From: an uncultured Alphaproteobacteria bacterium
Lineage (GTDB): Bacteria; Pseudomonadota; Alphaproteobacteria; Acetobacterales; Acetobacteraceae
Length of the DNA stretch: 64,000 bases
Direction of reading: 5' to 3'
NCBI GenBank assembly: GCA_963826975.1
Contig: CAWGZJ010000005.1
Span: 302,959 to 366,958, forward strand
Shown here: positions 2,262 through 59,498 of the stretch, in pieces
How positions within the stretch are numbered: position 1 is the stretch's first letter
Layout: each line of letters starts with the position of its first letter
Notes under the pieces: model-generated
Database searches by the model: none
The model's input: the letters and a program-made list of their open reading frames with translations, nothing else
What the model was told of the DNA's origin: nothing
Position numbers and translations under genes: made by a program

Positions 2262-3878
2262 TCACCGCGTCCGCCGTCCCGCACCAGCCTGCGCGAAGGG
2301 TCGTTGCACACAATCCCTACCAAACACTGCGGTCGCACCCACCGGCGTCACCGGCGACGCACTTCGACCCGGCGCCACCGTCCGACCCACCCGCGCCGTC
2401 GCCCCGAACAGCACATCGAGTTCCGCGCGCACGCTCGGTTGCCACGTCCCGGCCGGCGTCGTGCTCCGCAGCACCGCAGCCAGGCTCGGCGCCAGCCGCC
2501 CAGGCCCACTATCGTGGCCTGGCGCAGCGGCACGCTGCTGCACTGGGCATGCCCCGGGCACCGCGGGGCATACCCCCGGCCGCTCATCCGGAGGGTTGTT
2601 GCGCAAATCTCGCAGCGGCCACTTTACCCGCACGGCGGCCTCGGGCCGGGCGGCGCTGATCAGCGTCGGGCCGCGCGGCGACGCGGGTAAGGACGAGTCC
2701 CCCGGCGATCCAGCCGCCGCCGCCTCGCCCCGAGGGTTGTTGCGCAAATCTCGCAGCGGCCACTTTACCCGCGCGGCGGCCTCGGGCCGGGTGGCGCCCA
2801 CCACGGTCGGGCCACCCGGCGACGCGGGCAAGGACGCGTCGCCCGGCGATCCAACCGCCGCCGCCTCGCCCCGAGCGCATGCCCCCGCGCGCTTGCTCGG
2901 AGGGTTGTTGCGCAAATCCTGCAGGGGCCAATGTGCCCACCCCGCGGCCCCAGGCTGGGTGGCGCTCACCAGCGTCGGGTCGCGCCACGACGTGCGCAAG
3001 GACAAGTCCCCCGGCGATCCAACCACCGCCGCCTCGTCCCGAGGGCATGCCCCCGGCCGCTCGTCCCGAGGGTCGTTGCGCAAATCGCGCGCGGCGCCAT
3101 CGCCCGACTGCCCCGCGTTCCCCCGTGCCTCCCGCTTCGCCGCGCGGGCGAACGCGATCGCCGCCTTCCACGGCGCCCGGACGGCAGCCTCGGCCCGCGC
3201 CGCCAGCCGTTCGGCCACCCGGCGCGCGGGCGTTATCGGTATCCCCTCGATCGGCGCCTGCTCCCCAGCCGCCGGTCCGTCTGCGTCCACTCCGCAGGCA
3301 TGCCCCTCGGCGCTTGACCCGAGGGTTGTTGCGGAATTCAGCAAATCCGCCAAATCGGCCGCCAACTGCGGCGCCGAATGCGACCAATGCGGCGACGCCG
3401 CCAACTCCAGCACCGGCAACGCCAGCCGAGCCGCCATCGCCGCCGGCAAATACGCCCGCAAATCCGACGCCGCGCTCAACAGCTGGCCGCGCACGATCAC
3501 GCGTCGCACGGCAAGCTCCGCCGCCCGCTTCGGCGCGCCCGCCGGCCCATCCCGCCCGTGCGTCGTCTTCGAGGCGATCATCCGCGCCATCCCCTCCATG
3601 GTGCGCGGCCCGGTGCTGGTGCCGCCATGGATGCGGCACCGCCCGTTCGCCATCGGCGGCGCGCCGCACGGCGCGCCGCAGCGCGTCCGCGCCCCGCAGC
3701 ACACCGCCGGATCGCCCGGTCCCGCAGGCTCGCCGGCGAGCGCCAACCGTCCCTCGCCCGCCTGGCCGGCCACGGACGTGCCCGGCGGCGCGCCCGGCGG
3801 CACCTCCGCCACTGGGCCAGCCTCGGCGGGATTTGCCGCCATCGGGCACAGCTTCGTCGGGTCTACGGTCACACCCAC
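2262..3878 (-). CDS. Hypothetical Cys-rich protein (zinc-ribbon-like CCGARTRCGAPCGAPPMANGRCRIHGGTSTGPRT) whose C-terminal half is encoded by the 150-bp tandem repeats (WPLRDLRNNP... units)
   Basis: ORF in the high-GC repeat region; the repeat-encoded part may be non-coding; could be a frameshifted continuation of 3869..5008. Confidence 0.3.
   Translation of the reverse strand: MGVTVDPTKLCPMAANPAEAGPVAEVPPGAPPGTSVAGQAGEGRLALAGEPAGPGDPAVCCGARTRCGAPCGAPPMANGRCRIHGGTSTGPRTMEGMARMIASKTTHGRDGPAGAPKRAAELAVRRVIVRGQLLSAASDLRAYLPAAMAARLALPVLELAASPHWSHSAPQLAADLADLLNSATTLGSSAEGHACGVDADGPAAGEQAPIEGIPITPARRVAERLAARAEAAVRAPWKAAIAFARAAKREARGNAGQSGDGAARDLRNDPRDERPGACPRDEAAVVGSPGDLSLRTSWRDPTLVSATQPGAAGWAHWPLQDLRNNPPSKRAGACARGEAAAVGSPGDASLPASPGGPTVVGATRPEAAARVKWPLRDLRNNPRGEAAAAGSPGDSSLPASPRGPTLISAARPEAAVRVKWPLRDLRNNPPDERPGVCPAVPGACPVQQRAAAPGHDSGPGRLAPSLAAVLRSTTPAGTWQPSVRAELDVLFGATARVGRTVAPGRSASPVTPVGATAVFGRDCVQRPFAQAGAGRRTR
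2560..3110. repeat. Tandem array of ~4 units of ~150 bp, each containing the family-D motif GCATGCCCCCGG..CCCGAGGGTTGTTGCGCAAATC
   Basis: Near-identical 150-bp units read directly; family-D units also occur singly at 425-480 and 3297-3345, and partially at 29612-29650 and 59395-59440. Confidence 0.75.
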
Positions 3879-15289: not shown

Positions 15290-15454
15290 CCAAGGAAGCA
15301 AGGATTCCACCACAGAGGCACGGAGACACGGAGAAGGAATTGATGCATTTCGCGCGGTGCCTGAACGGACACCAGCGCGAAGCGCCCAAAATTCCTGCTT
15401 CTCCGTGTCTCCGTGCCTCTGTGGTGGAATCCTTGCTTCCTTGGTTTGCTTGCG
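15290..15454. repeat. MITE family C, variant copy with ~45-bp terminal inverted repeats
   Basis: CCAAGGAAGCAAGGATTCCACCACAGAGGCACGGAGACACGGAGAAG ... reverse complement at the other end. Confidence 0.7.
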
Positions 15455-21429: not shown

Positions 21430-22596
21430 ATGCTGAAAAGCGACACACGCATCCTGACCACACACACCGGCAGCCTGCCGCGCCCACCGGCGCTCACCGA
21501 ACTCTACGTCCAACGCAGCCACGGACAACCAGTAGACCCCGCCGCCCTCGACGCACTAGGCAAAGCCGCCCTAACCGACGTAGTCCGCAAACAGCTCGCC
21601 GCCGGGATCGACATCGGCAACAACGGCGAGCAGCAGCGCGAGGCCTTCTTCCTATACGTCCTCCGCCGCATGAGCGGCTTCGGCGGCGGCTGGACCCGGC
21701 GCACCATGGCCGACATCACGCGCTACCCCGGCTACGCCGCCGCAACCGGCGTGGACGACACCGGCAAGCGCGTGGTGAGCAATCGCGGCCGCCTGCCGCA
21801 GGCGGTGGCCGAGGTGCGCTACCTCGATCGAGCGCTGATCGACGCGGAATGCGCCGACTTCCGCGCCACCCTCGACGCCGCGGGAGGCGGATTCGCAGAG
21901 CCATTCATGACCGCCCCATCTCCCGGCATCATCGCTGCCGCGATGGCGAATGCCTGGTACGACACCGACGCCGCCTACCTGACCGCCCTCGGGCAGGCAC
22001 TGCGCATCGAGTATGAGGCAATCGTGCAAGCCGGGTTCCTGCTGCAGATCGACGCGCCGGACCTCGCGCTGGAGCGCCACGTCTCCTACCAGGACCGCCC
22101 GCTCGCGGACTTCGTAGCCTTCGCCGAAAACGTCGTAGCCACCATCAACGCGGCACTGGTGAACGTGCCGCGCGACCGGGTGCGCATGCATGTGTGCTGG
22201 GGCAACTACGAGGCACCACACGACTGCGACGTCGAACTCCGAGAAATCCTGCCCGCGATCAAGCAGGCGCATGTCGGCGGCTTCGTGCTGCCCTTCGCCA
22301 ATCCCCGCCACGCACACGAGCACCGCTGCCTGGCCGAGCTGCCCCTCGATGCCGGCCAGGTCATCGTCGCCGGCGTGATCGACCCCCTGACCAACTTCGT
22401 CGAACACCCCGAAGTCGTTGCCGACCGCATCGAGGCGGTCGCGCGCGCGGTCGGCGACCCAACGCGCGTGCTGGCGGGAACCGACTGCGGCTTCGACACC
22501 TCGGCCGGCCGCGGCCGGGTGGCTGACGACGTAGTCTGGGCCAAGCTGACCGCACTACGCGACGGCGCCAGGATAGCCTCACAAAGACTATTCTAA
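21430..22596 (+). CDS. Cobalamin-independent methionine synthase (MetE C-terminal domain)-like protein
   Basis: MLKSDTRILTTHTGSLPRP... and zinc-ligand context typical of the MetE-like UROD/MetE superfamily. Confidence 0.65.
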   Translation: MLKSDTRILTTHTGSLPRPPALTELYVQRSHGQPVDPAALDALGKAALTDVVRKQLAAGIDIGNNGEQQREAFFLYVLRRMSGFGGGWTRRTMADITRYPGYAAATGVDDTGKRVVSNRGRLPQAVAEVRYLDRALIDAECADFRATLDAAGGGFAEPFMTAPSPGIIAAAMANAWYDTDAAYLTALGQALRIEYEAIVQAGFLLQIDAPDLALERHVSYQDRPLADFVAFAENVVATINAALVNVPRDRVRMHVCWGNYEAPHDCDVELREILPAIKQAHVGGFVLPFANPRHAHEHRCLAELPLDAGQVIVAGVIDPLTNFVEHPEVVADRIEAVARAVGDPTRVLAGTDCGFDTSAGRGRVADDVVWAKLTALRDGARIASQRLF

Positions 22597-22802
22597 CTTA
22601 ACCTCTCCCGCCCTTACGCGGGAGAGGTCGAGGCGCAAAGCGCCAAGGGTGAGGGTGCCCCCCACCACCACCCCATCAACAGCCGCCCACCACAGCTTAC
22701 TGATCCCCGGCAGGGCGGAAAAGCGAAGCGCCTACCGCCTCTCTCACCCCATTGCCGCGTTCAAGGACGATATCGCCAACCGGTGCTTCCCACGCAACCG
22801 CC

Positions 22803-29763: not shown

Positions 29764-29908
29764 ATGATAGGAAGCAGAGAATCACCACAGAGGCACAGAG
29801 ACACAGAGACACAGAGACACAGAGACACAGAGCAGAAAGAGCAAGTCGTCAGCTGGATATTCTTCTCTGTGTCTCTGTGTCTCTGTGGTGATTCTTTGTT
29901 TCTATCAT
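29764..29908. repeat. MITE family C, copy 4 (internal CAGAGA microsatellite)
   Basis: TIRs ATGATAGGAAGCAGAGAATCACCACAGAGG / CCTCTGTGGTGATTCTTTGTTTCTATCAT. Confidence 0.7.
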
Positions 29909-40146: not shown

Positions 40147-40256
40147 GATAACTATTAGCAATAAAGAATCACCACAGAGGCACAGAGACACGGAGAAGAA
40201 CATCAAGTCGATCACTTGGCTTTTCTGCTCCGTGTCTCCGTGTCTCCGTGGTGATT
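40147..40256. repeat. MITE family C, copy 5 (ends in a T-run)
   Basis: GATAACTATTAGCAATAAAGAATCACCACAGAGGCACAGAGACACGGAG...CTCCGTGTCTCCGTGTCTCCGTGGTGATTTTCTG. Confidence 0.75.
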
Positions 40257-43997: not shown

Positions 43998-46670
43998 TTA
44001 GAACCTCGTACCAAAACCAAAGCGGAATATCTGCGTCTGATCGCCCGGCTGCTTCACGACGAAGGGCGTCAGGTCGATGTTGATCAGCCCAAACGGCGTC
44101 TTCCACGAGACGCCGACGCCAACGCCGATACGCGGGGTCGATGATGCCAGGATCGGCGGGCAGCCGCCGGCCTCGCCGGGGCAGGAGTTGTGCTCGAAAT
44201 TCGCCTGGGTCAGTCCGCCGACATCAACGAACGTGCGCCCGCTCAGCCCCAGATCGGGCGACACCGGCAGCGGGAAGCGCAGCTCGGCGGTTCCCGTCCA
44301 GATGAACCGTCCGCCAAGTGGATCGCCCTGCGTATCGTGCGGGCCGGCGCCACCCTCTTCGAAGCCGCGCAGGTTGTCGCCGCCAAGGTAGAACCGGTCG
44401 ATCAACTGCTCCTGCTGGCCTAGGTTGAACAAGTAGCCGGCACCGGCGGACAACGCCAACACCCAGGCGGGATCGCCCATCAGCCGCTCCAGCGGGACGT
44501 AATACGACACGTCTGCATGGGTGCGAACGAACTGGGCATTGCCGCCAAGTCCGGCGAAGTCGGTGCCGAGCCGGTACACGCCCCCGCTGTGCGGATCGAC
44601 CTTGCTGTCCCGATAGTCCAGCGCCAATTGCTGGCTGACCTGCGACAGCAACGTGTAGCCCTGTGCATCAACGATGAAGATGCTGGCACCGGGCTGGACA
44701 TTGGAGACCGTGCGTCCGACCAGCGAATAGCTCCAGGTCTGGCTTAGGTTCTCATTGTAATTGTAACCCATCGTCAGGGCGAAACCAACACGCTTCTCGT
44801 CGTACGGCTCGGTGCCGAGAAAGTTCGTCTGCACCAGGAAAACGTTCGCGCCGGCCACCAGGTTGCGGTCAAGGAAATACGGATCGGTGACAGAGATGTT
44901 GATCGAACTGTCATGCTGGGCCAGCACGCCATTGATCCCGGCGTTGACCCCGGTGCCGATGAAATTGCTCTCGGTAATGCCGGCATCGACCAACGCCCCG
45001 GCGTCGGTCGCGTAGCCGCCACCAAGCGTGACCGACCCGGTCGACTTCTCCGTCACCGTGGTGGTCAGGACCGTCTTGTCGGGCGCCGATCCCGGAGTCG
45101 GTTCTACCGTCACGGTGTTGAAGTAGCCCAGATCCTGCAGGCGCTGACGACTGCGGCGCACCGCCTCGGCGTTGAACGCATCGCCTTCGGCCACACGGAA
45201 CTCACGGCGGATGACCTTGTCCTTGGTTCGCACGTTGCCGACAATGTCGATGCGCTCGACATACCCGCGCGGTCCCTCGTCGACATTGAAAGCCAGGTCG
45301 ATGATGTGCTTGTCGGTATGTCGGGTGACGTCGGGTTTGACGTCAACAAAGGAGTAGCCGCGCGATCGCACGTCCTCGTCGATCTTGTCCGCCGTGCGCC
45401 CCACCGCGTCGCCGTCGTACCAGTCGCCCTCGTCAAGCTGCAGGTCCTTGCGCAGCGACTCGCCATCCAGGCCACGCAGGTGCGAGTTGATGGTGATTTT
45501 CCCGACCCGGTAGCGCTCGCCCTCGTTCAGGCTGAACGTCAGGAACAACGCCGACCGATCGGGCGACAGTTCGGTCGTCGAGTCGGTAACCTCGACGTCG
45601 GCATAGCCGTTCTTCAGGTAAAACCGGCGCAGCAACTCCTTGTCGAAGTTGATCCGGGCCGGGTCATATTCGTCGGCTGTCGACAGGAACCGCCACCAGG
45701 TGTGTTGGCGCGTGTTGATCACATCGTCCAGCCGGCCCTCGCTGAACGCATGGTTCCCGACAAACCCGATATGGGCGATGAACGCACTCGGCCCGTCGGC
45801 GATCTGGAACACCGCATCGACGCGATTCTCGCTCAGGCGGATGATTTGCGGCGTCACCACCGTCGCGAACCGCCCGCGCTTGGCGTAGGCCGCCAGAATC
45901 CGCTGCCGGTCGGCCTCGGCGGCGGCCGGCGTGAACACCGCGCGCGGACGCAACTGCACCACATCTTTCAGTTGGTCGTCGCTCTCCAGGTGGTTGCCCT
46001 CGAAGGCAACCCGGTTGACCAGCGGGTTCTCCACCACCTTCACCACCAGCGTGTCGCCCTGGCGCGTCAGGTCCACGTCCTGGAACAGCCCGGTCGCATA
46101 CAGGGTCTTCAGGCTGCGATCGATGCGTGCGGGATCGAACGGGTCGCCGGGCCGCACCAGCATGTAGGACAGGATGGTCCCGCCCTCGATTCGCTGGTTG
46201 CCCTGGATTTGGATCGACTGGATCGTGCCGGGCGCCGCAATCGGCGTAACCGGTCCGGCCGCCGGGGCCGCGGCACGCGCACCGGCGCCTGGGGTGCCAG
46301 GGGCACGGGAACCGGTGCCAGGGGAACCGGTCACTGGGGAACCGGTCACTGGGGAACCGGTCACTGGGGCAGCCGCGGCAGGGCCACCGGCGCCGGGCGC
46401 TGCCGCCGGCAGTTGCGGCACCGGCGTCGCACGCGGCGGCACCTGGACGGTCGGCAGGGGCGGCGCGCTTTGAGCGGCGGCCGGGTTGGCCTGCAACGCA
46501 AGCGGCACCAACGCGAGGGCCAGCAGCACGGCGCGGATGCAAAGCAAAAACCAAACCCCCCAATCTATCCCCAGACCCCGAGCTCGCGCCGCCTCGGTCA
46601 GGGCGGGGTTTGTCAGGCGAGCGGACCATAGCCGCGCTCGGCGCGCGATGCTAGCCGAGGGAGTTGTCAC
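43998..46670 (-). CDS. bamA: Outer membrane protein assembly factor BamA (POTRA domains + Omp85 barrel); N-terminal Pro/Ala-rich linker with VTGSP x3
   Basis: POTRA repeats, C-terminal barrel ending in the aromatic terminal motif (RF); true start within 46480-46670 is uncertain. Confidence 0.85.
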   Translation of the reverse strand: MTTPSASIARRARLWSARLTNPALTEAARARGLGIDWGVWFLLCIRAVLLALALVPLALQANPAAAQSAPPLPTVQVPPRATPVPQLPAAAPGAGGPAAAAPVTGSPVTGSPVTGSPGTGSRAPGTPGAGARAAAPAAGPVTPIAAPGTIQSIQIQGNQRIEGGTILSYMLVRPGDPFDPARIDRSLKTLYATGLFQDVDLTRQGDTLVVKVVENPLVNRVAFEGNHLESDDQLKDVVQLRPRAVFTPAAAEADRQRILAAYAKRGRFATVVTPQIIRLSENRVDAVFQIADGPSAFIAHIGFVGNHAFSEGRLDDVINTRQHTWWRFLSTADEYDPARINFDKELLRRFYLKNGYADVEVTDSTTELSPDRSALFLTFSLNEGERYRVGKITINSHLRGLDGESLRKDLQLDEGDWYDGDAVGRTADKIDEDVRSRGYSFVDVKPDVTRHTDKHIIDLAFNVDEGPRGYVERIDIVGNVRTKDKVIRREFRVAEGDAFNAEAVRRSRQRLQDLGYFNTVTVEPTPGSAPDKTVLTTTVTEKSTGSVTLGGGYATDAGALVDAGITESNFIGTGVNAGINGVLAQHDSSINISVTDPYFLDRNLVAGANVFLVQTNFLGTEPYDEKRVGFALTMGYNYNENLSQTWSYSLVGRTVSNVQPGASIFIVDAQGYTLLSQVSQQLALDYRDSKVDPHSGGVYRLGTDFAGLGGNAQFVRTHADVSYYVPLERLMGDPAWVLALSAGAGYLFNLGQQEQLIDRFYLGGDNLRGFEEGGAGPHDTQGDPLGGRFIWTGTAELRFPLPVSPDLGLSGRTFVDVGGLTQANFEHNSCPGEAGGCPPILASSTPRIGVGVGVSWKTPFGLINIDLTPFVVKQPGDQTQIFRFGFGTRF

Positions 46671-46725
46671 AGATTGCTACTGGCGCCGTTACGGCCGAAA
46701 CGGCACCCGCCCGGGCGTTTACGCT

Positions 46726-46790
46726 GGTAAAAGCGGGCGTTTACGCTGATAAAGGGGGCGTTTACGCTGGTAAAAGCCGGCTGGCCCGGG
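46726..46790. repeat. 22-bp tandem repeat (GGGCGTTTACGCTGGTAAAAGC x3) in the divergent bamA/lpxI intergenic region
   Basis: Read directly. Confidence 0.75.
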
Positions 46791-47154
46791 TCAAAGCAGG
46801 CCGGCCCGTGAGAAAAAGCCCGCCGGCGCTTCGGCGTAATCGCGCCGCGCCGCGCCTACTGGGCCCGATGCAGACGCGCCGGAGTCGCATTGGTTTCGCG
46901 CTCCCCGCCCTCGGCCTCGCAAATCCTCAGCACTTGGCATATTGCCAGGTAGGTTCGCGCCAGCCCGAGGCGCGCCGCGTCGTCTGCCAGCAGCAGAAGG
47001 CATTCAATAATCCCGTCGGCCGCCGAGCCGACATGGGGGCCGACATGGGGGCCGACATTGGGAAGGGGGGCGTCCCTGGTCATGCAGCGCTTGTCCTTGG
47101 CGTGAAGCGACGAATGTCAGCTTCCGGCCATCATGCGCCCGCGATGGTTGCCGC

Positions 47155-48045
47155 GTGGTTGCCGTGACGCCGGGGGGAAACCGCGCCGATCCGGGGACGC
47201 GGCCGGCGCTGGGCATTCTCGCCGGCGGCGGACGGTTGCCTGGCAGGGTCGCCGCCGCCGCCGCCGCTGCGGGCCGCCCGGTGTTCATGGTCGGCCTCGA
47301 CGGCTTCGCCGACCCTCCCGTGCTGGCGCCCTGGCCGCACGAGGTGATCCGAATCGGCGCCGCCGGACGGATCCTGGCGGCGTTGCGCGCCAATCGGTGC
47401 GCCGACCTCGTGCTGATCGGCACGGTGCGGCGGCCATCCCTGCTTGCCCTCCGCCCGGATGCCGAAGGCGCCCGCATCCTGGCGCGAATTGGCCGCGCCG
47501 CGTTCGCCGGGGACGACGGGCTGCTCGCCGCGGTCATCAAGGTGCTCGGCGAGGAAGGCTTCCGCGTCGTCGGCGCGCACGAAGTTATCAACGAGGCGCT
47601 CGCCCCCTCCGGCGTGTTGGGCGCCGTGACGCCGGACGCCCAGGCGATGGCCGACATCGATCGCGGGATCGCCGTGGCACGCGCGCTGGGCGCGGTGGAT
47701 GTCGGTCAGGGCTGCGTGGTGCAGCAGGGCCTGGTCCTGGCGGTCGAGGCGGCCGAGGGCACCGACGCCATGCTCGCGCGCTGTGCCGCGTTGGCGCGAT
47801 CGGGGCCGGGCGGCGTGCTGGTCAAGCTGGTCAAGCCGGCGCAGGACCGCCGCGCCGACCTGCCGACCATCGGCCCGGGATCAGTTGGCGCCGCCGCCGC
47901 CGCCGGATTGCGCGGGATCGCCTTCGCCGCCGGGGCCACATTGCTGGCCGATCGCGCGGCGGCGATCGACGCGGCGGACAGGGCAGGCCTGTTTCTGCTA
48001 GGCCTGGATCCGGCGACCATATCCGAAGGAGGAGAACACACATGA
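47155..48045 (+). CDS. lpxI: UDP-2,3-diacylglucosamine pyrophosphatase LpxI (DUF1009)
   Basis: [11 protein letters not shown]...VFMVGL...[27 protein letters not shown]...[19 protein letters not shown] conserved LpxI blocks. Confidence 0.75.
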
Positions 48046-48428
48046 GCAGCTTTCTGCACACCATGATTCGCGTCGGCGATCTGCAGCGCAGCGTCGATTT
48101 CTACACCAAGGCGTTCGGCATGAAGGAGCTGCGCCGGCGCGACGTGCCGGACGGCAAATACACCCTGGCGTTCGTCGGCTACGGCGACGAGGACAGCAAC
48201 ACCGCGATCGAGCTGACCTACAACTACGGCGTGGAAAAATACGAGATGGGCAGCGCGTTCGGCCATCTGGCGGTTGGCGTACCGGACGTGGCAGCAGCGT
48301 GCCAGATTGCCGCGAGTGCCGGCGGCACGATCACCCGCCCGGCCGGCCCGGTAAAGTTCGGCACCACCATCATCGCCTTCGTGAAGGACCCGGACGGCTA
48401 CCTGATAGAACTGGTCCAGCGCCACTGA
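48042..48428 (+). CDS. gloA: Lactoylglutathione lyase (glyoxalase I)
   Basis: GGAGGAG RBS 7 nt upstream; [16 protein letters not shown]...ELTYNYG...GHLA glyoxalase I signature. Confidence 0.85.
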
Positions 48429-48850
48429 CATCCCCAACGTTCACCTCTCCCGCTCTTCGCGGGAGGTCGAGGCGCGAAGCGACGAGGGTGAGGGCGCGGA
48501 GACCAATATGTCCCACCGCGGCCGCGCCGGTTCGTCAAGGACCCGGACGGCTACCTGATCGAGCTGGTCCAGCGCCACTGACATCCCCAATGTTCACCTC
48601 TCCCGCTCTTCGCGGGAGAGGTCGAGGCGCGAAGCGACGAGGGCGAGGGCGCGGAGACCAATATGTCCCACCGCGGCCGCGCCGGTTCGTCAAGGACCCG
48701 GACGGCTACCTGATCGAACTGGTCCAGCGCCACTGACATCCCCAATGTTCACCTCTCCCGCTCTTCGCGGGAGAGGTCGAGGCGCGAAGCGACGAGGGTG
48801 AGGGCGCGGAGACCAATATGTCCCACCGCGGCCGCGCCGGCCGCCAGGTC
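48421..48850. repeat. Tandem ~153-bp duplication (2.8 units) made of the last 57 bp of gloA plus a family-A repeat element
   Basis: Units start at 48421, 48582 and 48735 and each contains ...GTCAAGGACCCGGACGGCTACCTGATCGAGCTGGTCCAGCGCCACTGA. Confidence 0.85.
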
Positions 48851-49111
48851 ACCCCATTCAACGAAGCCAATCGCCGTTGATCCAGACTAAGGCAGCACCT
48901 TCGCACCGGTATCAGCCTGCCACCATGTGTCTCACCAATCTGATTGCAACCTCGGATCAGCCTGTAGCGCGCCGCACCAACGATCCGGTAGCGCCACGGG
49001 CGACGGCGCGACCGCAGTCGCCACGCGAGGTGCGGACGTTTCTTCCCCGTGTCTCTATAATAAACGTTGCGTGTTCGCGAACCGTCCGCGATTCGCAATG
49101 GGGTGATAGAC

Positions 49112-49678
49112 ATGGACGTGGTCGAACTGTCCCGCCTGCAATTCGGCCTAACGGCGATGTACCACTTCCTCTTCGTCCCCCTGGCCCTAGGCCTAGCCAT
49201 CCTGCTCGCCATCATGGAGAGCATCTACGTCACCACCGGCCGCACCATCTGGCGCGACATCACCAAATTCTGGGGCCTGCTGTTCGGCATCAACTTCGCC
49301 ATGGGCGTCGCCACCGGCCTGACCATGGAATTCGAGTTCGGCACCAACTGGGCCTACTACGCGCACTACGTGGGCGACATCTTCGGCGCCCCCCTGGCGA
49401 TCGAGGGCCTGATGGCCTTCTTCCTGGAAGCCAGCTTCATCGGCCTGTCCTTCTTCGGCTGGAACCGGATGACCCGCGTGCAGCACCTGATCGCCACCTG
49501 CCTGATGGCGATCGGCACCAACCTCTCGGCCCTGTGGATCCTGATCGCCAATGGCTGGATGCAGAACCCGGTCGGCGCGCGGTTCAACATCGCCACCATG
49601 CGCATGGAGGTCACCGACTTCTTCGCCGTCCTGGAGATCAGTTTCCCAGGCTTACAAGTCGAACGGGTAAGGAGGTAG
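49112..49678 (+). pseudogene. cydA: Cytochrome bd ubiquinol oxidase subunit I (CydA), N-terminal ~185 aa only; truncated at ~49640 where sequence composition changes
   Basis: [27 protein letters not shown]...GWNRMT...[10 protein letters not shown] matches the CydA N-terminus; full CydA is ~450-520 aa and no cydB follows. Confidence 0.7.
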
Positions 49679-49845
49679 ATGGTGATCCAATTCGATGCTG
49701 CGCCCGCGGTTTCGATTAGCTACCCGCGCCTGAAGGCCCTCAATTCGTCAGAGATCGACCGGGCGCGAGCTTCGGGTTATGCTGCCGATGACGTGGACCC
49801 AAAGGCGCCTGTCCGACGTGCGGGCTGAATAACTACGACGCCCCA

Positions 49846-50136
49846 ATGCCCGAAGAGGATCTTCGAGATTGGCGCGCACGAATGTATGTCGTTTGGTTCT
49901 GCTATATTTACGAAAATTTCCGAGTCATACATAAACCCCTATTTGCTCTCGAGGAACTTGCATTAGAGTTCAAAGCCCTGTACCTCCTTGATCCGAGATT
50001 TGGCAGTTTATACGCTGGCGCGGGCGGCTTGGAACCTGCGTCGCTCGCTGTGCGAGAAAAACAACTGGAGCTCCTAAAGCCGCTCTATATCAAGGCAATT
50101 CAGTTGCTTGAGACATGGAATACCTCTCATGGCTAG
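49846..50136 (+). CDS. Hypothetical 96-aa protein in a low-GC (~50%) patch
   Basis: ORF with atypical composition; its position immediately upstream of the Rhs-tip fragment is compatible with an orphan immunity-type gene. Confidence 0.3.
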   Translation: MPEEDLRDWRARMYVVWFCYIYENFRVIHKPLFALEELALEFKALYLLDPRFGSLYAGAGGLEPASLAVREKQLELLKPLYIKAIQLLETWNTSHG

Positions 50137-50308
50137 AAAGATGCTTGCTCTGTTAACCCGCATTTGTCACTCAGCGGAGTGTTGGACGTTTCGGCGGCGA
50201 TGAATTGAGCGTTGGACGCGTCGTGTCGTTGGCCGGCGGTTCTGTTCGAAAAAGAGGCCAAACCTGACCGGTTCCAGCATTTTAAAGTCCGAGACAGCGT
50301 TCTGGCGT

Positions 50309-50869
50309 TTGGCTCGGGGGGAAGGAGGTGAACACTTGGGCCGCGCCGCCGGTATCAAGCTATATGCATATGTCGGAAATACCCCGCTGAACCGCATAGA
50401 CCCAGTCGGTCGTTGCGACAATCTATCGGGGTGTGCCGCCGGTTCGAGCGACCAGCTCAATATGGCCGATGAGCCGTCGATCTGGCCTCGCCACGCCGAC
50501 ATCACCGACCACAACCGGCTCAACAACGGCGCACGACGGTGTTCTCCTCTGGAGGTCAACTGGTTGACGGCTTCGAGCCGCAAGCGCAGGTCTCGGTCGG
50601 GCCAATGCTTGCCTTCCTCGAACGCCAGTGCGTCGATGCTGAATTACAGCGCGCACCACGCTGACCAGGACGCCAAGGTTTGGCTGGGCCAACCCTGGGC
50701 CGCGGCGGCACTCCTGATTGAGCTGCCGCAGGCGTTGGTGGTTGCTCGCAGCCAGCACTATATTGCCCCCATGGACACCGCCCCACCCCCCCCCGCGCCA
50801 ACTCAGCCACAATCCGCGTCGACACCCAGGCGGAGACCCGGCGCCGGATCGCCCGGGAGGCCGAAATGA
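50309..50869 (+). CDS. Orphan Rhs/YD-repeat C-terminal tip fragment (LYAYVGNTPLNRIDPVG core-end motif followed by a ~100-aa variable toxin-like domain); 3' part of the ORF is probably read-through
   Basis: The YxYxGNxPLNxxDPxG motif marks the end of Rhs core domains; no upstream Rhs core is present. Confidence 0.5.
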   Translation: MARGEGGEHLGRAAGIKLYAYVGNTPLNRIDPVGRCDNLSGCAAGSSDQLNMADEPSIWPRHADITDHNRLNNGARRCSPLEVNWLTASSRKRRSRSGQCLPSSNASASMLNYSAHHADQDAKVWLGQPWAAAALLIELPQALVVARSQHYIAPMDTAPPPPAPTQPQSASTPRRRPGAGSPGRPK

Positions 50870-50987
50870 TCGCCGAGGCGCGCGCGTCGGCTGCCGCCGG
50901 GCGCGTCGTGTCGTCGGAAGAGGTCGACGCCTGGATCGATAGCCTCGACACGGACCACGAGCGACCGGCACCCCGTTCCGGGCGCTG
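50812..50987 (+). pseudogene. Fragment of a ribbon-helix-helix type antitoxin (C-terminal ...IAREAEMIAEARASAAAGRVVSSEEVDAWIDSLDTDHERPAP)
   Basis: The frame is open back to a stop at 50719 but has no start codon, and no partner toxin gene follows. Confidence 0.35.
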
Positions 50988-51298
50988 AGGCGGTACGAAT
51001 AAGCGCGCACAGTGCGAACGTCACGCGGCTCTCGGGTAGGCTTCCGGCGCCGCAGTTAGCGGCCTCAATCCGTCGGTGTTTTCCGACATGCTATGCGAAA
51101 CTCCCCAGACGTAGTCCCCGTCAGGTTGACGTGCTCCCAGCCGAGCGGCGAAAGGTGGGCAAGCAGATGATCGGGGATGTCCTCGCTCTCCCGCAGAACG
51201 GCCATGGCGCGCTCCATCCTGTGCAATACGCGCTACCTGTAATCCCGCTTGCAAACCTGCTTGCAACCCATCGGAATCCGAACCAATATGGCTGACCG

Positions 51299-51922
51299 AT
51301 GGAGAACCGCATGCACTGCTTTGGCAAGATTCCCGGGATCGCCGTCGGCGCCATCCTGGTCCTATCAGTTTCGACTGGGACGGCATCAGCGGCCTTATTT
51401 GATTGGACCCTTTCCGGCGGCGGCGACACTGGCTCTGGCACGCTGACGACAGGTGCTGCCGACGGCCACGGCTATGATGTTCTCAGTTTTTTGGGGACAA
51501 TAGATGGTCATGCGGTCGCCCTCTCCGGTGGACAACCTGGTCCCGGTGGCAGCGGCTCCCCGGGACCATTCTATTTCGACAATATAATCTATCCTGCTTT
51601 GAATTCCGGGACGCCCAGCTGTGCTGGCGGCAATACCTTCCTCGATGGGTGCGGCATCGCTTTTACGATCGATGGCGGGTACGGAAACATCTTCGATAAT
51701 TATTCTGGAACCGGCACCGGTGCGTACGTTTATTCGATCGTGGCTGCATCAAGTTCCAACAATTTCGATGCTAACTTTGCTATCACGCAAGTTCCGGAGC
51801 CCTCCTCGCTATCGTTGCTCGTTGTTATGGTCGCCGGTCTCGGTCTGATATGTTGGCGCAACCGCCCGCTGTCTGTCCGCCAAGACGGGCCTGGGGGCCA
51901 ATCGCCGAGCATATCGGTGTAG
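51299..51922 (+). CDS. PEP-CTERM sorting domain-containing secreted protein
   Basis: N-terminal signal peptide and C-terminal VPEPSSLSLLVVMVAGLGLICWRNR (PEP motif + TM + basic tail). Confidence 0.7.
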   Translation: MENRMHCFGKIPGIAVGAILVLSVSTGTASAALFDWTLSGGGDTGSGTLTTGAADGHGYDVLSFLGTIDGHAVALSGGQPGPGGSGSPGPFYFDNIIYPALNSGTPSCAGGNTFLDGCGIAFTIDGGYGNIFDNYSGTGTGAYVYSIVAASSSNNFDANFAITQVPEPSSLSLLVVMVAGLGLICWRNRPLSVRQDGPGGQSPSISV

Positions 51923-52229
51923 CGCGAATTCTATCGTCGCGTTTGTGCCCATAAAATAATCTCGGCGTCAGCTGCGGTGCGCAGGCCAAGGTCGATCGCA
52001 TGCACTGCGTCGTGGCCCTGCTGCAAAAGCCACGCCGCTCGCCACGCCCTGCCGCACCGCCGCGCTGGTCGCTTGACGGCTGATCTTCTATCAGTGGGAT
52101 AATACCGGGCGGCAGAACTACCGGCGGACGCAACCCCGCCACCGGACCGTCACCCCAACCGGTCAAATGACCGGGTGTCAGACCAACCAAGCGGCGATAA
52201 ACGTCCCCAGGACCGATCGGTAGGACACC

Positions 52230-53384
52230 ATGAGAACACGGCTAGGAAGCCTCTGTATCTTGGCCGTAGCCGCGCTCGCACCGCCGGTCATCGCCCCCGC
52301 GCAAACCGCGCCACCGGCGCCACAGGTGACGGTCGCCACCCCCCTCGCCAGCCACGTGGCCCAATGGGACGAATTCACCGGGCGGTTTGAGGCGGTGGCG
52401 AGGGTCGACGTCCGCCCACGCGTCTCCGGCTACATCACCGAGGTGCATTTCCGCGACGGCGCCACCGTCAAACAGAACGATCTGCTGTTCACCATCGACC
52501 AGCGGCCGTTCCAGCTCGCCGTCGACTCCGCCCAGGCCGACGTCGTTCGCACCCAGGCGCAGGTCGTGCTGGACGTCGCCGACTACGCGCGCGCCCAGGA
52601 GTTGGTGAAGACCGCCGCCACCCCGGTGCGTGAACTCGACCAGCGCAAGGCGAATCTCGACATCGCGCGGGCCCAGCTTCTCTCCGCCGAGGCGGCATTG
52701 CACACCGCGCAGCTCAATCTGGAATGGACCGAGGTGCGGGCGCCCGTCGCCGGGCGGGTGTCGGACCGGCGGGTCGATCCCGGCAACCTTGTCGCCGGCG
52801 GACAAAGCGGCTCGACCCTGCTGACCACGATCATCAGCCTGGATCCGATCTATTTCGTCTTCGATGGATCGGAGGCCGACTACGTCCGCTACAGGCGCCT
52901 CGATGCCGAAGGGAAACGCGGCTCGTCGCGCGATACCCCGAACCCCGTCCGAGTGCGCCTCGCCGACGAAACCACCTGGCCCCACGCCGGAGTGATGAAT
53001 TTCGTCGACAACGAAATCAATCCACACACCGGGACGATCCGCGGACGCGCGATATTCGACAACAAGGACGGCTTTCTCACGCCGGGCACCTTCGGCCGGC
53101 TGCGCCTCTACGGCGGGGCAATCGACGCATTGCTGATCCCCGACGCCGCGATCGTCTCCGACCAGGCCAACAAGGTCGTGCTGCTCGTCGGCGCCGACAA
53201 CAAGGTGCTTGCCAGGCCGGTGACGCTCGGCGGCATGGCGCGCGGATTGCGCGTCGTCGCATCCGGGATTGCGCCCACCGATCGCATAGTGATCACCGGC
53301 CTCGCCAATCCGTTCGTCCGTCCCGGTGTGACCGTCGCGCCGCGACAAGGTGAGATCCATCCGGCCGACGACAACGCCGACTGA
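52230..53384 (+). CDS. Efflux RND transporter periplasmic adaptor (membrane fusion protein)
   Basis: Lipoprotein/signal N-terminus, coiled-coil hairpin, beta-barrel and MP domain conservation. Confidence 0.85.
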   Translation: MRTRLGSLCILAVAALAPPVIAPAQTAPPAPQVTVATPLASHVAQWDEFTGRFEAVARVDVRPRVSGYITEVHFRDGATVKQNDLLFTIDQRPFQLAVDSAQADVVRTQAQVVLDVADYARAQELVKTAATPVRELDQRKANLDIARAQLLSAEAALHTAQLNLEWTEVRAPVAGRVSDRRVDPGNLVAGGQSGSTLLTTIISLDPIYFVFDGSEADYVRYRRLDAEGKRGSSRDTPNPVRVRLADETTWPHAGVMNFVDNEINPHTGTIRGRAIFDNKDGFLTPGTFGRLRLYGGAIDALLIPDAAIVSDQANKVVLLVGADNKVLARPVTLGGMARGLRVVASGIAPTDRIVITGLANPFVRPGVTVAPRQGEIHPADDNAD

Positions 53385-53389
53385 TTCGG

Positions 53390-53505
53390 GGCCGACTGAT
53401 TTGGGGCCGACTGAACCGGGCCCGCCTGAACCGGGCCAGACTGAACCAAGGCCGACTGAACCAAGGCCGACTGAACCAAGGCCGACTGAACCACGGACGC
53501 GGCCG
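53390..53505. repeat. 16-bp microsatellite (GGCCGACTGAACCAAG-like, about 7 units) between the adaptor and RND genes
   Basis: Read directly. Confidence 0.85.
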
Positions 53506-53536: not shown

Positions 53537-56500
53537 ATGCGATTCTCGCATTTCTTCATCGAGCGGCCGATCTTCGCCGCGGTTCTGTCGATCGTCATCA
53601 CCATCGCCGGCGCGCTGGTCCAGCGGGCGCTGCCGATCTCGGAATATCCCGATATCGCGCCGCCCACGGTCAACATCCGCGCCAACTATCCCGGCGCCTC
53701 CGCCCAGGTGCTCGCCGAAACCGTGGCGACGCCGATCGAGCAGCAGGTGAACGGCGTCGACGACATGCTGTACATCACCAGCCAGTCGGTCGGCGACGGC
53801 ACGCTGTCGATCGACGTGGTGTTCAAGCCCGGCACCGATATCGACATCGCGCAAGTGCTGGTGCAGAATCGGGTCTCCGTCGCCACGCCGCGACTGCCGG
53901 CTGAAGTGCAGCAGCTCGGCATCACGGTGCGCAAGGCCTCGCCCGACCTGATGATGGTCGTGCACATGATTTCGCGGGATGGCTCGCGCGACCAGCAATA
54001 CATCTCGAACTATGCAACGCTCTACATCAAGGATGCGCTGGCGCGGGTCGATGGCGTGGGCGACGTCAATGTCTTCGGCGCCCGCGATTATTCGATGCGC
54101 GTATGGCTCGATCCCGCCAAGGTAGCGGCGCGCGGGCTGACCGCTGGCGACGTGGTGAACGCGCTGCGCGCCGCAAACCTTCAGGTCGCCGCGGGCGCGA
54201 TCAACCAGCCGCCGGCGACCTCGCCGGGCGCGTTCCAGATATCGGTGCAGACGCTGGGCCGGCTGCGCGATGTCGAGCAGTTCGGCGACATCGTGGTGCG
54301 CGCCGATCCGGGCACCGGGTTCGTGCGCATCCGCGACATCGCCCGGGTCGAACTCGGCGCCCAGGACTACACGGTCAACGCCTATCTCAACAAAGCCGTG
54401 GCAACCGCCATCGTGATCTATCAGCGCCCAGGCTCCAACGCGCTCTCTACCGCGGCCGCGATCAAACAGGCGATGGCGGAGGCCAAGCGGAATTTCCCGC
54501 CCGGCCTCGATTATTCGATCGTCTACAATCCGACCGAGTTCATCCAGCAATCCGTCAATGAGGTCGTGCGCACCCTGTTCATCGCAATCGGCCTCGTTGT
54601 CTGCGTCGTGATCCTGTTCCTGCAAACCTGGCGCGCCGCGATCATTCCGGTGGTGGCCATTCCGGTGTCGCTGATCGGCTGCTTCCTGGTCATGGGGATG
54701 GTCGGAATCGGCTTCAACACCCTGTCGCTGTTCGGCCTGGTGCTGGCGATCGGCATCGTGGTGGACGACGCGATCGTCGTGGTCGAGAACGTCGAGCGCT
54801 ATCATCCGCGAGGGCATGACGCCGAAGGACGCCGCGCATGAGACGATGGACGAGGTCGGCAGCGCGCTGATCGCCATCGCCCTGGTGCTGTGCGCGGTGT
54901 TCATCCCGACCGCTTTCATCAGCGGATTGCAGGGCTCGTTCTACCGCCAGTTCGCCATCACCATCGCCGCGCGCGACGGTGATCTCCGCCATGGTGTCGC
55001 TGACCCTGTCGCCGGCGCTGGCGGCGCTGCTGTTGAAACCGCACGACGCGGCGCCAAAGCCGACACTGATGCATCGCCTGGCCACGCCGCTGCGTGGATT
55101 CTTCGCCGGTTTCAACTGGGCGTTCGACCGCGTGTCGCTGGGCTATGGCCGGCTGGTCGGCCGGCTGGTGCGGATCGGCGCCATCGTGCTGGTGGTCTAC
55201 GCGGCGCTGATCTATGCCGCCTACAATCGGCTGGCCGCGACGCCCACCGGACTTATCCCGCAGCTCGACCGCGGCTATCTGATCGCCGCGTTCCAGCTTC
55301 CGCCGGGCGCCTCGCTCGCGCGCACCGACGCAGTGATCCGCCGGGCGTCCGAGATCATTCTGCAACGACCGGGCGTGCAGAACTCCGTCGCATTCACCGG
55401 ATTTGACGGCGCGACCTTCACCAACGCGCCCAACGCCGGCGTGATCTTCGTGCCGTTGAGCCCGTTCGAGGAACGCGTGTCGCGCGGCCTGACTGCGCCG
55501 CGCATCCTCGCCGATTTGCGCCAGCAGCTAGCCCAGATCGACGACGCCTTCGCCTTCGTGCTCGAGCCGCCCTCGGTTCCCGGCATCGGCACCGGCGGCG
55601 GGCTGAAGCTGTACGTCCAGGACCGCACCGGGCAGGGCTTGCCCGCGCTGGAGCAGGCTACCTGGATCGTTGCCGGCTCGGCGGCGCAGACCCCTGGCTT
55701 CACCCAGGCCTTCACCCTGTTCAACACGCATACGCCGCAGATCTACGCCGATATCGACCGCACCAAGTCGGAGTTGTTGCAGGTGCCGATCGGGCGCGTG
55801 TTCGAAGCGCTGTCGGTCTACATGGGGTCGTCCTACATCAACGACTTCAACCTGGCCGGACGCACCTATCAGGTGATGGCGCAGGCCGACAACCCGTACC
55901 GGCTGACCCTGCGCGACGTCGAAAACCTGAAGACGCGCAACGCCGGCGGCGACATGGTGCCGATCGGTGCGGTGGCGACATTCCGTGACACGACCGGACC
56001 GTTCCGCGTGCCGCGCTACAACCTCTATCCGGCGGCCGAGGTGCAGCTTGGCCTGGCGCGCGGCTTTTCCACCGGCCAGGCGATCGCCGCGATCGAGAAG
56101 ATCGCCGCCGAGCGTCTGCCCCCCGGCTTCGGGTTCGAATGGACCGAGATCGCGCTGCAGGAGAAGCTCGCCGGCAACACCGCGCTCTGGCGTTCGGCCT
56201 CGCGGTCGCCTTCGTCTTCCTGCTGCTGGCGGCGCTGTACGAGAGCTGGCTGCTGCCGCTCGCCGTCGTGCTGATCGTGCCCATGTGCATTCTGGCGGCG
56301 ATGCTCGGGGTGAACGCGCGCGGGCTGGACCGCAACATCCTGGTCGAGATCGGGCTGGTGGTGCTGGTCGGACTGGCCGCCAAGAACGCCATTCTGATCG
56401 TGGAATTCGCCAAGCAGGCCGAGAACGAGGGCATGACAAGGTTCGAAGCGGCGGTTGCCGCGGCGCGTACGCGGTTGCGGCCGATCCTGATGACCTCGAT

Positions 56501-57328: not shown

Positions 57329-57616
57329 ATGTCGCTCGACGCCGCGACCATCCGTCGCATCGCCTCGCTCGCCCGCATTCACGTCGATGATGCCGAGGTC
57401 GCCACGCTGCAAACCGAGCTGAACTCGATCCTCGGCTGGATCGAGCAGCTCAACGAGGTGAACGTCGACGGCGTCGAGCCGCTGACCGGCGCCGCGCAGA
57501 TGGCGCTGAAGATGCGCGAGGACGTGGTGACCGACGGCGGCTACCCCGAGAAGGTGCTGGCCAACGCGCCGGAGCGGGCGGGGAACTTCTACGCCGTTCC
57601 GAAGGTGGTGGAGTGA
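57329..57616 (+). CDS. gatC: Asp-tRNA(Asn)/Glu-tRNA(Gln) amidotransferase subunit C
   Basis: ~95-aa GatC sequence immediately upstream of gatA. Confidence 0.85.
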   Translation: MSLDAATIRRIASLARIHVDDAEVATLQTELNSILGWIEQLNEVNVDGVEPLTGAAQMALKMREDVVTDGGYPEKVLANAPERAGNFYAVPKVVE

Positions 57617-57675
57617 TGCGGGTGCCGTATGCGACCCCGAAGGTGGTGGAGTGATGCGGGTGCCATATGCGACCA

Positions 57676-57785
57676 CTTCTCCCCCTCCCCTTGAGGGAGG
57701 GGGTTGGGGGGAGGGGTCAATCCCCCACCGACGTTGCGCGCTCAACCCCTCCCCCCACCCCCCTCCCTCAAGGGGAGGGGGAGTA
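57676..57785. repeat. Palindromic repeat family B, copy 3 (gatC-gatA spacer), preceded by a 44-bp direct duplication at 57595-57680
   Basis: Read directly. Confidence 0.8.
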
Positions 57786-57804
57786 GCGCACCCAGAACCA
57801 CCCC

Positions 57805-59287
57805 GATGACCCTCACCGACCTCACCCTCGCCGCCGCCCGGGACGGCTTGCGCGCCAGGCACTTCACCGCCGAAGCCCTCACCCGCGCGCACCTCGAAGC
57901 GATCGAGGCCCTCAACCCGCGCCTGAACGCCTACACCACCGTCAGCCACGCCCGCGCGATGGATCAGGCGCGCGCCGCCGACGCCGCTATCGCGCGCAAC
58001 GACACCCGCCCCCTCACCGGCATTCCGCTCGCCATCAAGGACCTGTTCTGCACCGAAGGCGTGCGCACCACCGCCGGCAGCAAGATCCTCGGCCCCTTCG
58101 TCCCACCCTACGAAAGCACCGTCACCGCCAACCTGCTGCGTGACGGCGCGGTCTTCCTCGGCAAGGCGAACATGGACGAGTTCGCCATGGGCTCGTCCAA
58201 CATGACCTCGGCCTGGGGCGCGGTGGAGAACCCGTGGAAGCGCCGCCAGGACAGCAGTGCCGTGCTGGTGCCCGGCGGGTCCTCCGGCGGATCGGCATCC
58301 GCGGTCGCCGCGCGGCTGGCACTGGGTGCGACCGGCACCGACACCGGCGGATCGATCCGCCAGCCGGCGTCGTTCTGCGGCATCGTCGGCGTCAAGCCGA
58401 CCTACGGCCGTTGCTCGCGCTGGGGCGTGGTGGCGTTCGCGTCGTCGCTGGACCAGGCCGGCCCGTTCGCCCGCACGGTCGAGGACTGCGCCATCCTGCT
58501 CGGCTCGATGGCCGGCCACGATCCGAAGGATTCCACCAGCGCCGACGTTCCGGTACCGGACTTTGCAGCTGCCTGCCGGCGCGGCGTGCAGGGCATGCGC
58601 ATCGGCGTGCCGCGCGAATACCGGCTCGACGGCATGCCCGACGATATCGAGCGCCTGTGGCAGCAGGGCGTTGCCTGGCTGCGCGACGCCGGCGCCGAAA
58701 TCGTCGACGTATCGCTGCCGCACACCAAATACGGCCTGACCACCTACTACATCGTTGCCCCGGCCGAGTGCTCGTCAAACCTGGCACGCTACGACGGCGT
58801 GCGCTTCGGCCTGCGCGAGGACGGCGCCGATCTGCGCGACCTTTATGAGAAGACGCGTGCCGCCGGGTTCGGCGCCGAGGTACGCCGGCGCATCATGATC
58901 GGCACCTACGTGCTGTCCGCCGGCTACTACGACGCTTATTACTTGCGCGCACAGAAGGTGCGGGCGCTGATCCTGCGCGATTTCACCGAGGTGTTCACCA
59001 AGGTGGATGCGCTGCTGACCCCGACCGCGCCCTCGGCCGCGTTTGCGCAGGGCGACAACATGGACGACCCGATCAAGATGTATCTGAACGACGTGTTCAC
59101 CATCCCGGCCAGCATGGCGGGTGTGCCCGGCATATCGGTGCCGGCCGGGTTGGACGCCAACGACCTGCCGCTCGGCCTGCAGGTGATCGGCAAGCCGTTC
59201 GACGAAGAAACGATCTTCGCGGTTGCCGCAGCAATAGAACGTGCGGCAAAATTCGATGCACTGCCGGCGCTCAGGGCAGCAGGTTGA
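57805..59287 (+). CDS. gatA: Glutamyl-tRNA(Gln)/Asp-tRNA(Asn) amidotransferase subunit A
   Basis: Amidase signature [12 protein letters not shown] and family-wide similarity. Confidence 0.9.
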
Positions 59288-59295
59288 GCGCCTGT

Positions 59296-59390
59296 ACACC
59301 TCTCCCGCGCTTGCGGGAGAGGTCGGCGAGCGGAGCGAGACGGGTGAGGGTTCTTGCCGCATGCACCACCCTCACCCGCATCGCTCCGCG
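59296..59390. repeat. Family A repeat copy in the gatA-gatB spacer
   Basis: ACACCTCTCCCGCGCTTGCGGGAGAGGTCGGCGAGCGGAGCGAGACGGGTGAGGG plus an adjacent palindrome. Confidence 0.8.
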
Positions 59391-59498
59391 CCGCGACCCC
59401 CGGGTCAAGTGCCCGGGGGCATGCCTTGGTCCGCTCTTCGCGGCCCAAGCCCGCAAAGAGCGAGAGAGGTGCACTACGATGACCGCGGAGACTGAACC

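Follow-up and report, generated by a model that had tools for sequence, protein, structure and literature searches.

A probably neutral, lineage-specific tandem triplication of a 155-bp segment straddling the gloA 3′ end, with a REP-like hairpin repeat as likely passenger, in an uncultured member of the Acetobacteraceae

The 64-kb stretch of DNA analysed here (the window) contains an intact gloA gene encoding lactoylglutathione lyase (glyoxalase I), with lpxI on one side and a fragment of cydA on the other (Table 1). The gene product scored 155 bits against NCBIfam TIGR00068 (cut-off 120), the Pfam domain Glyoxalase was found on the identical product in a second assembly (L001, see below) and the GC content of gloA by codon position was 0.62/0.43/0.87. 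The final 51 bp of gloA are, at the same time, the first part of the first copy of a tandem repeat. TRF, applied to the whole window, described this array with a period of 155, 3.0 copies, 97% matches and a score of 877, which is the top score in the window, and a repeat search together with a three-way alignment gave unit lengths of 153, 155 and 155 bp and spacings of 153 and 155 bp. Each unit is composed of the 51-bp gloA end, a spacer of about 10 bp, a core of about 58 bp that belongs to a dispersed hairpin repeat (family A) and a 36-bp tail. The tail lies outside family A, and a BLAST search against the window matched it to the three array copies only. The array has one orientation, a constant period and a high identity far above chance and is, therefore, a tandem repeat of the minisatellite/VNTR type. 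A preliminary description of this DNA had proposed that the gloA 3′ end and a family-A element were triplicated together, head to tail, and TRF, repeat search and alignment bear this out. Its measures have to be adjusted: the array starts at 48378, within gloA, and not at 48421, it comprises exactly 3.0 units instead of about 2.8, and the duplicated coding part amounts to 51 bp, which is 16 codons plus TGA, instead of 57 bp and 18 residues.

Table 1 Features of the gloA locus and its tandem array (positions in the window)
Feature	Position	Strand	Evidence
gloA, lactoylglutathione lyase / glyoxalase I, 128 aa, intact	48042..48428	+	TIGR00068, Pfam, codon GC
Whole tandem array, 3.0 units of 155 bp	48378..48840	+	TRF, alignment
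Copy 1, 153 bp, holds the functional gloA end	48378..48530	+	repeat search, alignment
Copy 2, 155 bp	48531..48685	+	repeat search, alignment
Copy 3, 155 bp	48686..48840	+	repeat search, alignment
gloA-end fragment, copy 2	48531..48581	+	alignment
gloA-end fragment, copy 3	48686..48736	+	alignment
Family-A core, copy 1: weakened hairpin plus GGTCGAGGCGCGAAGCGACGAGGGTGAGGG	48439..48494	+	alignment, BLAST
Family-A core, copy 2	48592..48649	+	repeat search, BLAST
Family-A core, copy 3; hairpin 48751-48777	48747..48804	+	repeat search, BLAST
36-bp tail CGCGGAGACCAATATGTCCCACCGCGGCCGCGCCGG, closes every unit	48495..48530, 48650..48685, 48805..48840	+	BLAST
Unique right flank up to the cydA start	48841..49111	+	BLAST
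cydA 5′ remnant, residues 1-174 of about 515	49112..49678	+	Pfam, tblastn

The two extra gloA stop regions that had been described are present at 48579-48581 and 48734-48736, and they are untranslated. The copy 2 fragment is in the frame of gloA, because copy 1 has a length of 153 bp, but two TGAs (48426 and 48489) precede it and an in-frame start codon is lacking. The copy 3 fragment ends a 145-aa ORF (48299-48736) which overlaps gloA in a different frame. GC by codon position in this ORF was 0.77/0.67/0.59; with 0.59 at third positions versus 0.87 in gloA the pattern is unlike that of gloA and the ORF is, therefore, spurious. It is also the single ORF with a start codon that ends in the repeated peptide, which leaves one ORF that is not gene-like in place of the small ORFs reported before. 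Read-through or fusion products were considered and ruled out by the two intervening TGAs, the missing start codon in copy 2 and the low GC3 of the 145-aa ORF. Neither of the extra gloA ends can pass for a credible gene. The 51-bp coding part differs between the copies at three sites, each time by a synonymous third-position change, and coding selection on the duplicated ends was considered for this reason. It was discarded as an argument: purifying selection accounts for GTG and ATA, which are exclusive to the functional copy 1, and the remaining difference goes back to one change, which would hit a third position in 1 of 3 cases.

The hairpin CTCCCGC-N2-8-GCGGGAG was found seven times in the window versus 0.02 expected. 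Family A occupies five loci in the window, namely the gloA array and positions ~322, 22605, 33632 and 59302. Alignment and BLAST showed that the latter four have in common only the core of ~55-60 bp; the gloA piece and the 36-bp tail are absent from them. In the array unit, the core consists of the hairpin ACCTCTCCCGC-TCTTC-GCGGGAGAGGT followed by CGAGGCGCGAAGCGACGAGGGTGAGGG. The hairpin of copy 2 (48596-48622) has a perfect 11-bp stem and a 5-nt loop and is followed by the conserved 3′ part, and the copy 2 core matched 22601-22655 and 331-368 in BLAST. The stem starts 4-14 bp behind a stop codon at two of the other loci (22596 to 22600, 59287 to 59297), and at gloA the distance runs from 48428 to 48443. 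Family A is, thus, a real dispersed repeat and REP-like: its copies are multiple and extragenic, share a palindromic core and are positioned just after stops. It resembles REP/BIME repeats in being dispersed and extragenic, in its location directly after stop codons, in its GC-rich, imperfect-to-perfect stem-loop and in its conserved flank. The hairpins are plentiful in this lineage (7 in 64 kb) and nearly missing from ~500 kb of relatives' loci. Two copies deviate in structure. In the copy at 59297-59400, the conserved 3′ part (…GACGGGTGAGGGT) pairs with the downstream sequence ACCCTCACCCG…, forming a second, longer hairpin; the family-A copies of the gloA array are without that right arm and, therefore, look truncated. 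At 284-342, a partial extra hairpin, ACCTCTCCCGCAAGCGGGA, adjoins a complete one, and TRF calls the two a 26-bp x 2 repeat. The loop of the extra hairpin is inverted (AA vs TT) and it is, therefore, not a simple tandem copy.

The units are joined at GCGCCGG|TTCGTC (in fuller form ...CGGCCGCGCCGG|TTCGTCAAGG...), in unique sequence. To the left, the array is flanked by sequence ending with ...ATCGCC, to the right by sequence beginning with CCGCCAGG, which leaves, therefore, 0 bp of microhomology at the join. The family-A core lies 61 bp from the left and 36 bp from the right edge of the unit, so the element is internal cargo and not a boundary, and with a single element per unit there is no pair of elements available for recombination. 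REP-mediated tandem duplications, as known from Salmonella, arise by recombination between two REP copies, with the join within REP. The duplicated gloA segment shares with them a REP-like palindromic repeat but differs in that the unit has one element and the join lies outside of it in unique sequence, and it does not belong to this class. A literature search on the joins of REP-mediated duplications returned nothing directly relevant.

A gene 3′ end that is repeated in direct orientation behind an intact gene also recalls the attL/attR sites of integrative elements, and the gene-end fragment of copy 2 equals the allele of another lineage (L082, see below). Nevertheless, we consider it extremely improbable that the array is the footprint of a mobile or integrative element, be it by att-type repeats, by accretion of miniature elements or by a MITE with a long target duplication. 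What is repeated head to tail is the complete unit of 155 bp, instead of short repeats around a distinct cargo, and the repeat search revealed no inverted repeats at the termini of the unit. No integrase or transposase gene is nearby and no recombinase gene is present from 46 to 56 kb; the IS481-family gene at 563-1828 is the closest one. In BLAST, the non-coding part of the unit was never found together with a gloA piece elsewhere in the window, and nothing comparable was seen in ~85 related loci. The array is unlike att duplications in having neither cargo nor integrase nor distinct attL and attR sites, the repeat being the whole unit, and it is no MITE with a target-site duplication, as the unit ends do not pair as inverted repeats and the 51-bp gene piece lies within the full unit.

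An exact-protein look-up retrieved a second assembly of the locus (L001), a 45-kb contig of the JGI metagenome 3300055389 which ends at window position 50781. It was 99.93% identical to the window over 5740 bp, and all four SNPs are located in lpxI. The array itself was identical, with three copies and all six differences between the copies; therefore, it predates that 0.07% split and has been stable. The same finding makes an artefactual expansion unlikely. It could be argued that the true locus has one or two units which were expanded, or that strain variants were strung in series, since the source contig is metagenome-derived, to judge from its closest relatives and from where the identical protein was found, the unit of 155 bp is near short-read length and nearby genes look frameshifted (an RND pump, 53537-56274, in three frames), which could reflect assembly errors. 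However, the array agrees base for base in two separate assemblies that differ at four nearby SNPs, and no two of the three copies have the same sequence, each combining the variants in its own way, unlike a collapsed or expanded repeat. An assembly artefact is, in our view, highly improbable.

The distribution of the array was determined in a one-genome-per-species scan of 80 GTDB species loci plus the loci L082 to L087 (~85 loci). The closest of the 80 loci belong to uncultured Acetobacteraceae with a GloA identity of 80-94%. More than one gloA 3′ end was found by BLAST of the unit in none of the ~85 related loci, and the downstream sequences of the 80 all differ. With a single gloA end in all relatives, the array is lineage-specific. 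The copy number is three in the window and three in L001, the sole other assembly of the lineage, and the locus structure is missing from distant relatives. Scans of metagenome contigs with the unique tail and the gloA 3′ end yielded no alleles with one or two copies. The closest relative recovered was L082 (P0129), with 124 of 128 GloA residues identical and 93.0% nucleotide identity in gloA. In L082 as well as in L006, gloA is followed by a spacer of ~100 bp and cydA, without family A. Family-A-like hairpins were found directly past gloA in L087 (P0132; degenerate) and in L010, and the position of the element may, therefore, predate the duplication. The P0123 contigs with available DNA (L083-L086) have a gene on the opposite strand ~50 bp past gloA and a different downstream context. 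In L022 (3001-3400; MFD09495.bin.1.74), gloA is apparently frameshifted near codon 114 (…FVEGP*, then …YAIELVQRP* in the other frame), by a 1-bp indel error or as a pseudogene; the spot corresponds to the start of the repeat unit in the window.

Six differences were found among the three copies. Copy 1 has four private states (GTG, ATA, a C at position 61 of the unit and the loss of 2 bp from the right arm of the hairpin), copy 2 has two and copy 3 has none. Being without private changes, copy 3 has the sequence that is central to the other two. A33 and T114 are common to copies 1 and 3, and the four other states are common to copies 2 and 3. This pattern fits neither of the simple two-step models cleanly and would require reversion in copy 2 or gene conversion, two possibilities which so few sites appear unable to separate. 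Pairwise divergence between the copies is 1.3-3.9% (2 to 5 substitutions plus one indel), versus 7% between gloA and its counterpart in L082, which dates the array after the split from L082. The gene-end fragment of copy 2 is identical to the end of the L082 gloA in 51 of 51 positions. This suggests that the untranslated copies have kept an older allele and that the working gloA end has since drifted at silent sites.

Hairpins of the REP type protect upstream mRNA, and three of them in series could act as a selected 3′-UTR module that stabilises the gloA mRNA or insulates it from cydA; that the array is unchanged in two strains would agree with such a role. Yet the array is absent from all relatives and the hairpin of copy 1 is already damaged by its 2-bp deletion. 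Rfam gave no match at E <= 1 in 46000-51000, and a scan for promoters and terminators was negative, with no terminator-like site in 47900-49300; the hairpins run into CGAGGCG and have no T-tract. Further, the downstream cydA is a dead remnant, which leaves nothing to insulate: Pfam Cyt_bd_oxida_I is covered from positions 1 to 168 of 418, CydA of L006 matches by tblastn with residues 1-174 only and the remaining cydA is absent from the window. The unique right flank in front of it resembles neither the unit nor the spacers between gloA and cydA in the relatives; a degenerate fourth copy in this flank was, thus, rejected. The DNA 3′ of gloA is a rearranged, decaying region in this lineage, which makes a selected role of the array as insulator or terminator unlikely, and altogether we regard a selected 3′-UTR module as very improbable. 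Beyond the cydA remnant, 49680-52200 is DNA of lower GC (51-56%) with orphan ORFs and a gene for a PEP-CTERM protein (51299-51922). Farther downstream, an RND efflux pump gene is split over three overlapping frames (53537-54841, 54816-55406 and 54979-56274), either by true frameshifts, as in a pseudogene, or by assembly indel errors.

The preliminary description had also held that family-A elements mediate local tandem amplification and can copy coding sequence. Coding sequence was copied, indeed, but a mediating role of the element does not follow, since the join lies outside the core, each unit contains one element and tandem duplication is absent at three of the four other family-A loci; at the fourth (~284-342) only the abutting partial hairpin was found. 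A search of the window for further amplifications of a gene end plus a repeat revealed two other arrays that copy a stop codon, neither with family A. The first, at 57599-57674, has 2.0 copies of a 38-bp unit (97%) which comprises the last five codons of gatC with TGA (…AVPKVVE*) plus 20 bp, and it adjoins a palindromic element of the GGGAGGG/CCCCTCC type (~57675-57790) that fills the gatC-gatA spacer. The second, at 53376-53492, has 7.8 copies of the 15-bp unit GCCGACTGAnnnGGG, the first of which consists of the last two codons plus TGA of an HlyD-type membrane-fusion gene (52230-53384), and it precedes the RND pump gene. It contains eight TGAs, seven of them at 15-bp spacing in the frame of the gene and one offset by 1 bp, and no palindromic element was found at this array. 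The gene-end arrays within the 64 kb are, thus, gloA x3, gatC x2 and membrane-fusion gene x8. Counting arrays with a period of 12 or more, which cover 5.8% of the window, and 39 stops of gene-like ORFs, three stop-containing arrays were observed versus 2.25 expected. A general process of duplication anchored at stop codons was rejected on this count; gene-end arrays occur as random placement predicts in a repeat-rich genome, and they are tolerated since the gene stays complete in the first copy.

These data also bear on the possibility that the family-A hairpin itself promotes duplication, in that replication stalls at the stem-loop and the nascent strand switches template nearby, which would make family-A loci hot spots. 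The unit does contain a strong hairpin with a stem of 11-13 bp (predicted RNA fold of the 155-bp unit -74.9 kcal/mol, z = -3.1; whole array z = -4.1), a second family-A locus (284-342) has the abutting extra partial hairpin and the 38-bp duplication at gatC adjoins another palindromic element. On the other hand, the joins are 61 and 36 bp away from the element core, three of the four other family-A loci are without duplication, the inverted loop sets the extra hairpin at 284-342 apart from a simple tandem copy, no palindrome accompanies the 15-bp x 7.8 array at the membrane-fusion stop and gene-stop arrays are not in excess. Therefore, promotion by the hairpin appears unlikely. A facilitating role via replication stalling may exist, for which no positive support was obtained, but a family-A-specific mechanism is neither needed nor indicated. 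The more general notion that stem-loop-rich DNA behind stops is a preferred site of template switching, at which REP-like elements would seed gene-end arrays whose copies could be read as datable fossils, is quite improbable.

Taken together, the array is with good probability a tandem triplication, confined to this lineage and most likely neutral, of 155 bp of DNA across the gloA 3′ end, with the hairpin repeat as a passenger. Tandem amplification in bacteria commonly starts with a RecA-independent join at which homology is short or absent, and expansion driven by homology comes next. The gloA array resembles such tandem duplications of the minisatellite/VNTR type in its head-to-tail order, its constant period, the homology-free join, the presence of more than two copies, the slight divergence of the copies and the intact gene at the left edge. 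The selected amplifications that are usually studied span kilobases, whereas the unit of the gloA array is 155 bp and its copy number is the same in two assemblies. A plausible course of events would start from a family-A hairpin that was already present ~13 bp behind the gloA stop, the usual place for family A. An illegitimate, homology-independent join from 36 bp past the element to codon 113 of gloA would then have given rise to two copies, and the 155 bp of perfect homology between them would have allowed unequal sister-strand exchange or replication slippage to produce the third. Since no one- or two-copy allele of this locus was found, the stepwise order, like the mechanism, is one that we infer; neutrality is assumed. 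The array would be tolerated because its left edge within the 3′ end of the gene keeps the first gene copy complete, and the two extra gene ends would persist as fossils that are not translated, within the 3′ untranslated region of gloA.

The array illustrates how a short-range tandem duplication may extend across the end of a gene harmlessly and carry a REP-like element along. It also calls for caution in annotation, as the extra stop regions and the spurious 145-aa ORF could be miscalled, and strains of this uncultured Acetobacteraceae lineage from soil or peat could be typed with it as a VNTR marker. Beyond that, it matters little: it is an ordinary local duplication of a known type and gives no evidence for a new amplification mechanism.

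Other repeats were noticed elsewhere in the window. At the IS481-family transposase gene mentioned above (563-1828; rve, LZ_Tnp_IS481), a 23-bp x 2.1 tandem repeat (533-581) duplicates the region of its start codon (GGAGACATGGGTRACA…). Three to four units of 141/168 bp that are 78-90% identical were found at 2568-3090, within a 538-aa ORF on the minus strand (2262-3878) which has no Pfam match and contains the repeated peptide …WPLRDLRNNP…. Finally, at 15311-15423, 29786-29887 and 40173-40250, arrays of the 8-mers CACAGAGA/CACGGAGA are paired with inverted arrays of TCTCTGTG/TCTCCGTG at a distance of 30-80 bp, and these pairs constitute a third kind of palindromic intergenic element, made of short tandem repeats.
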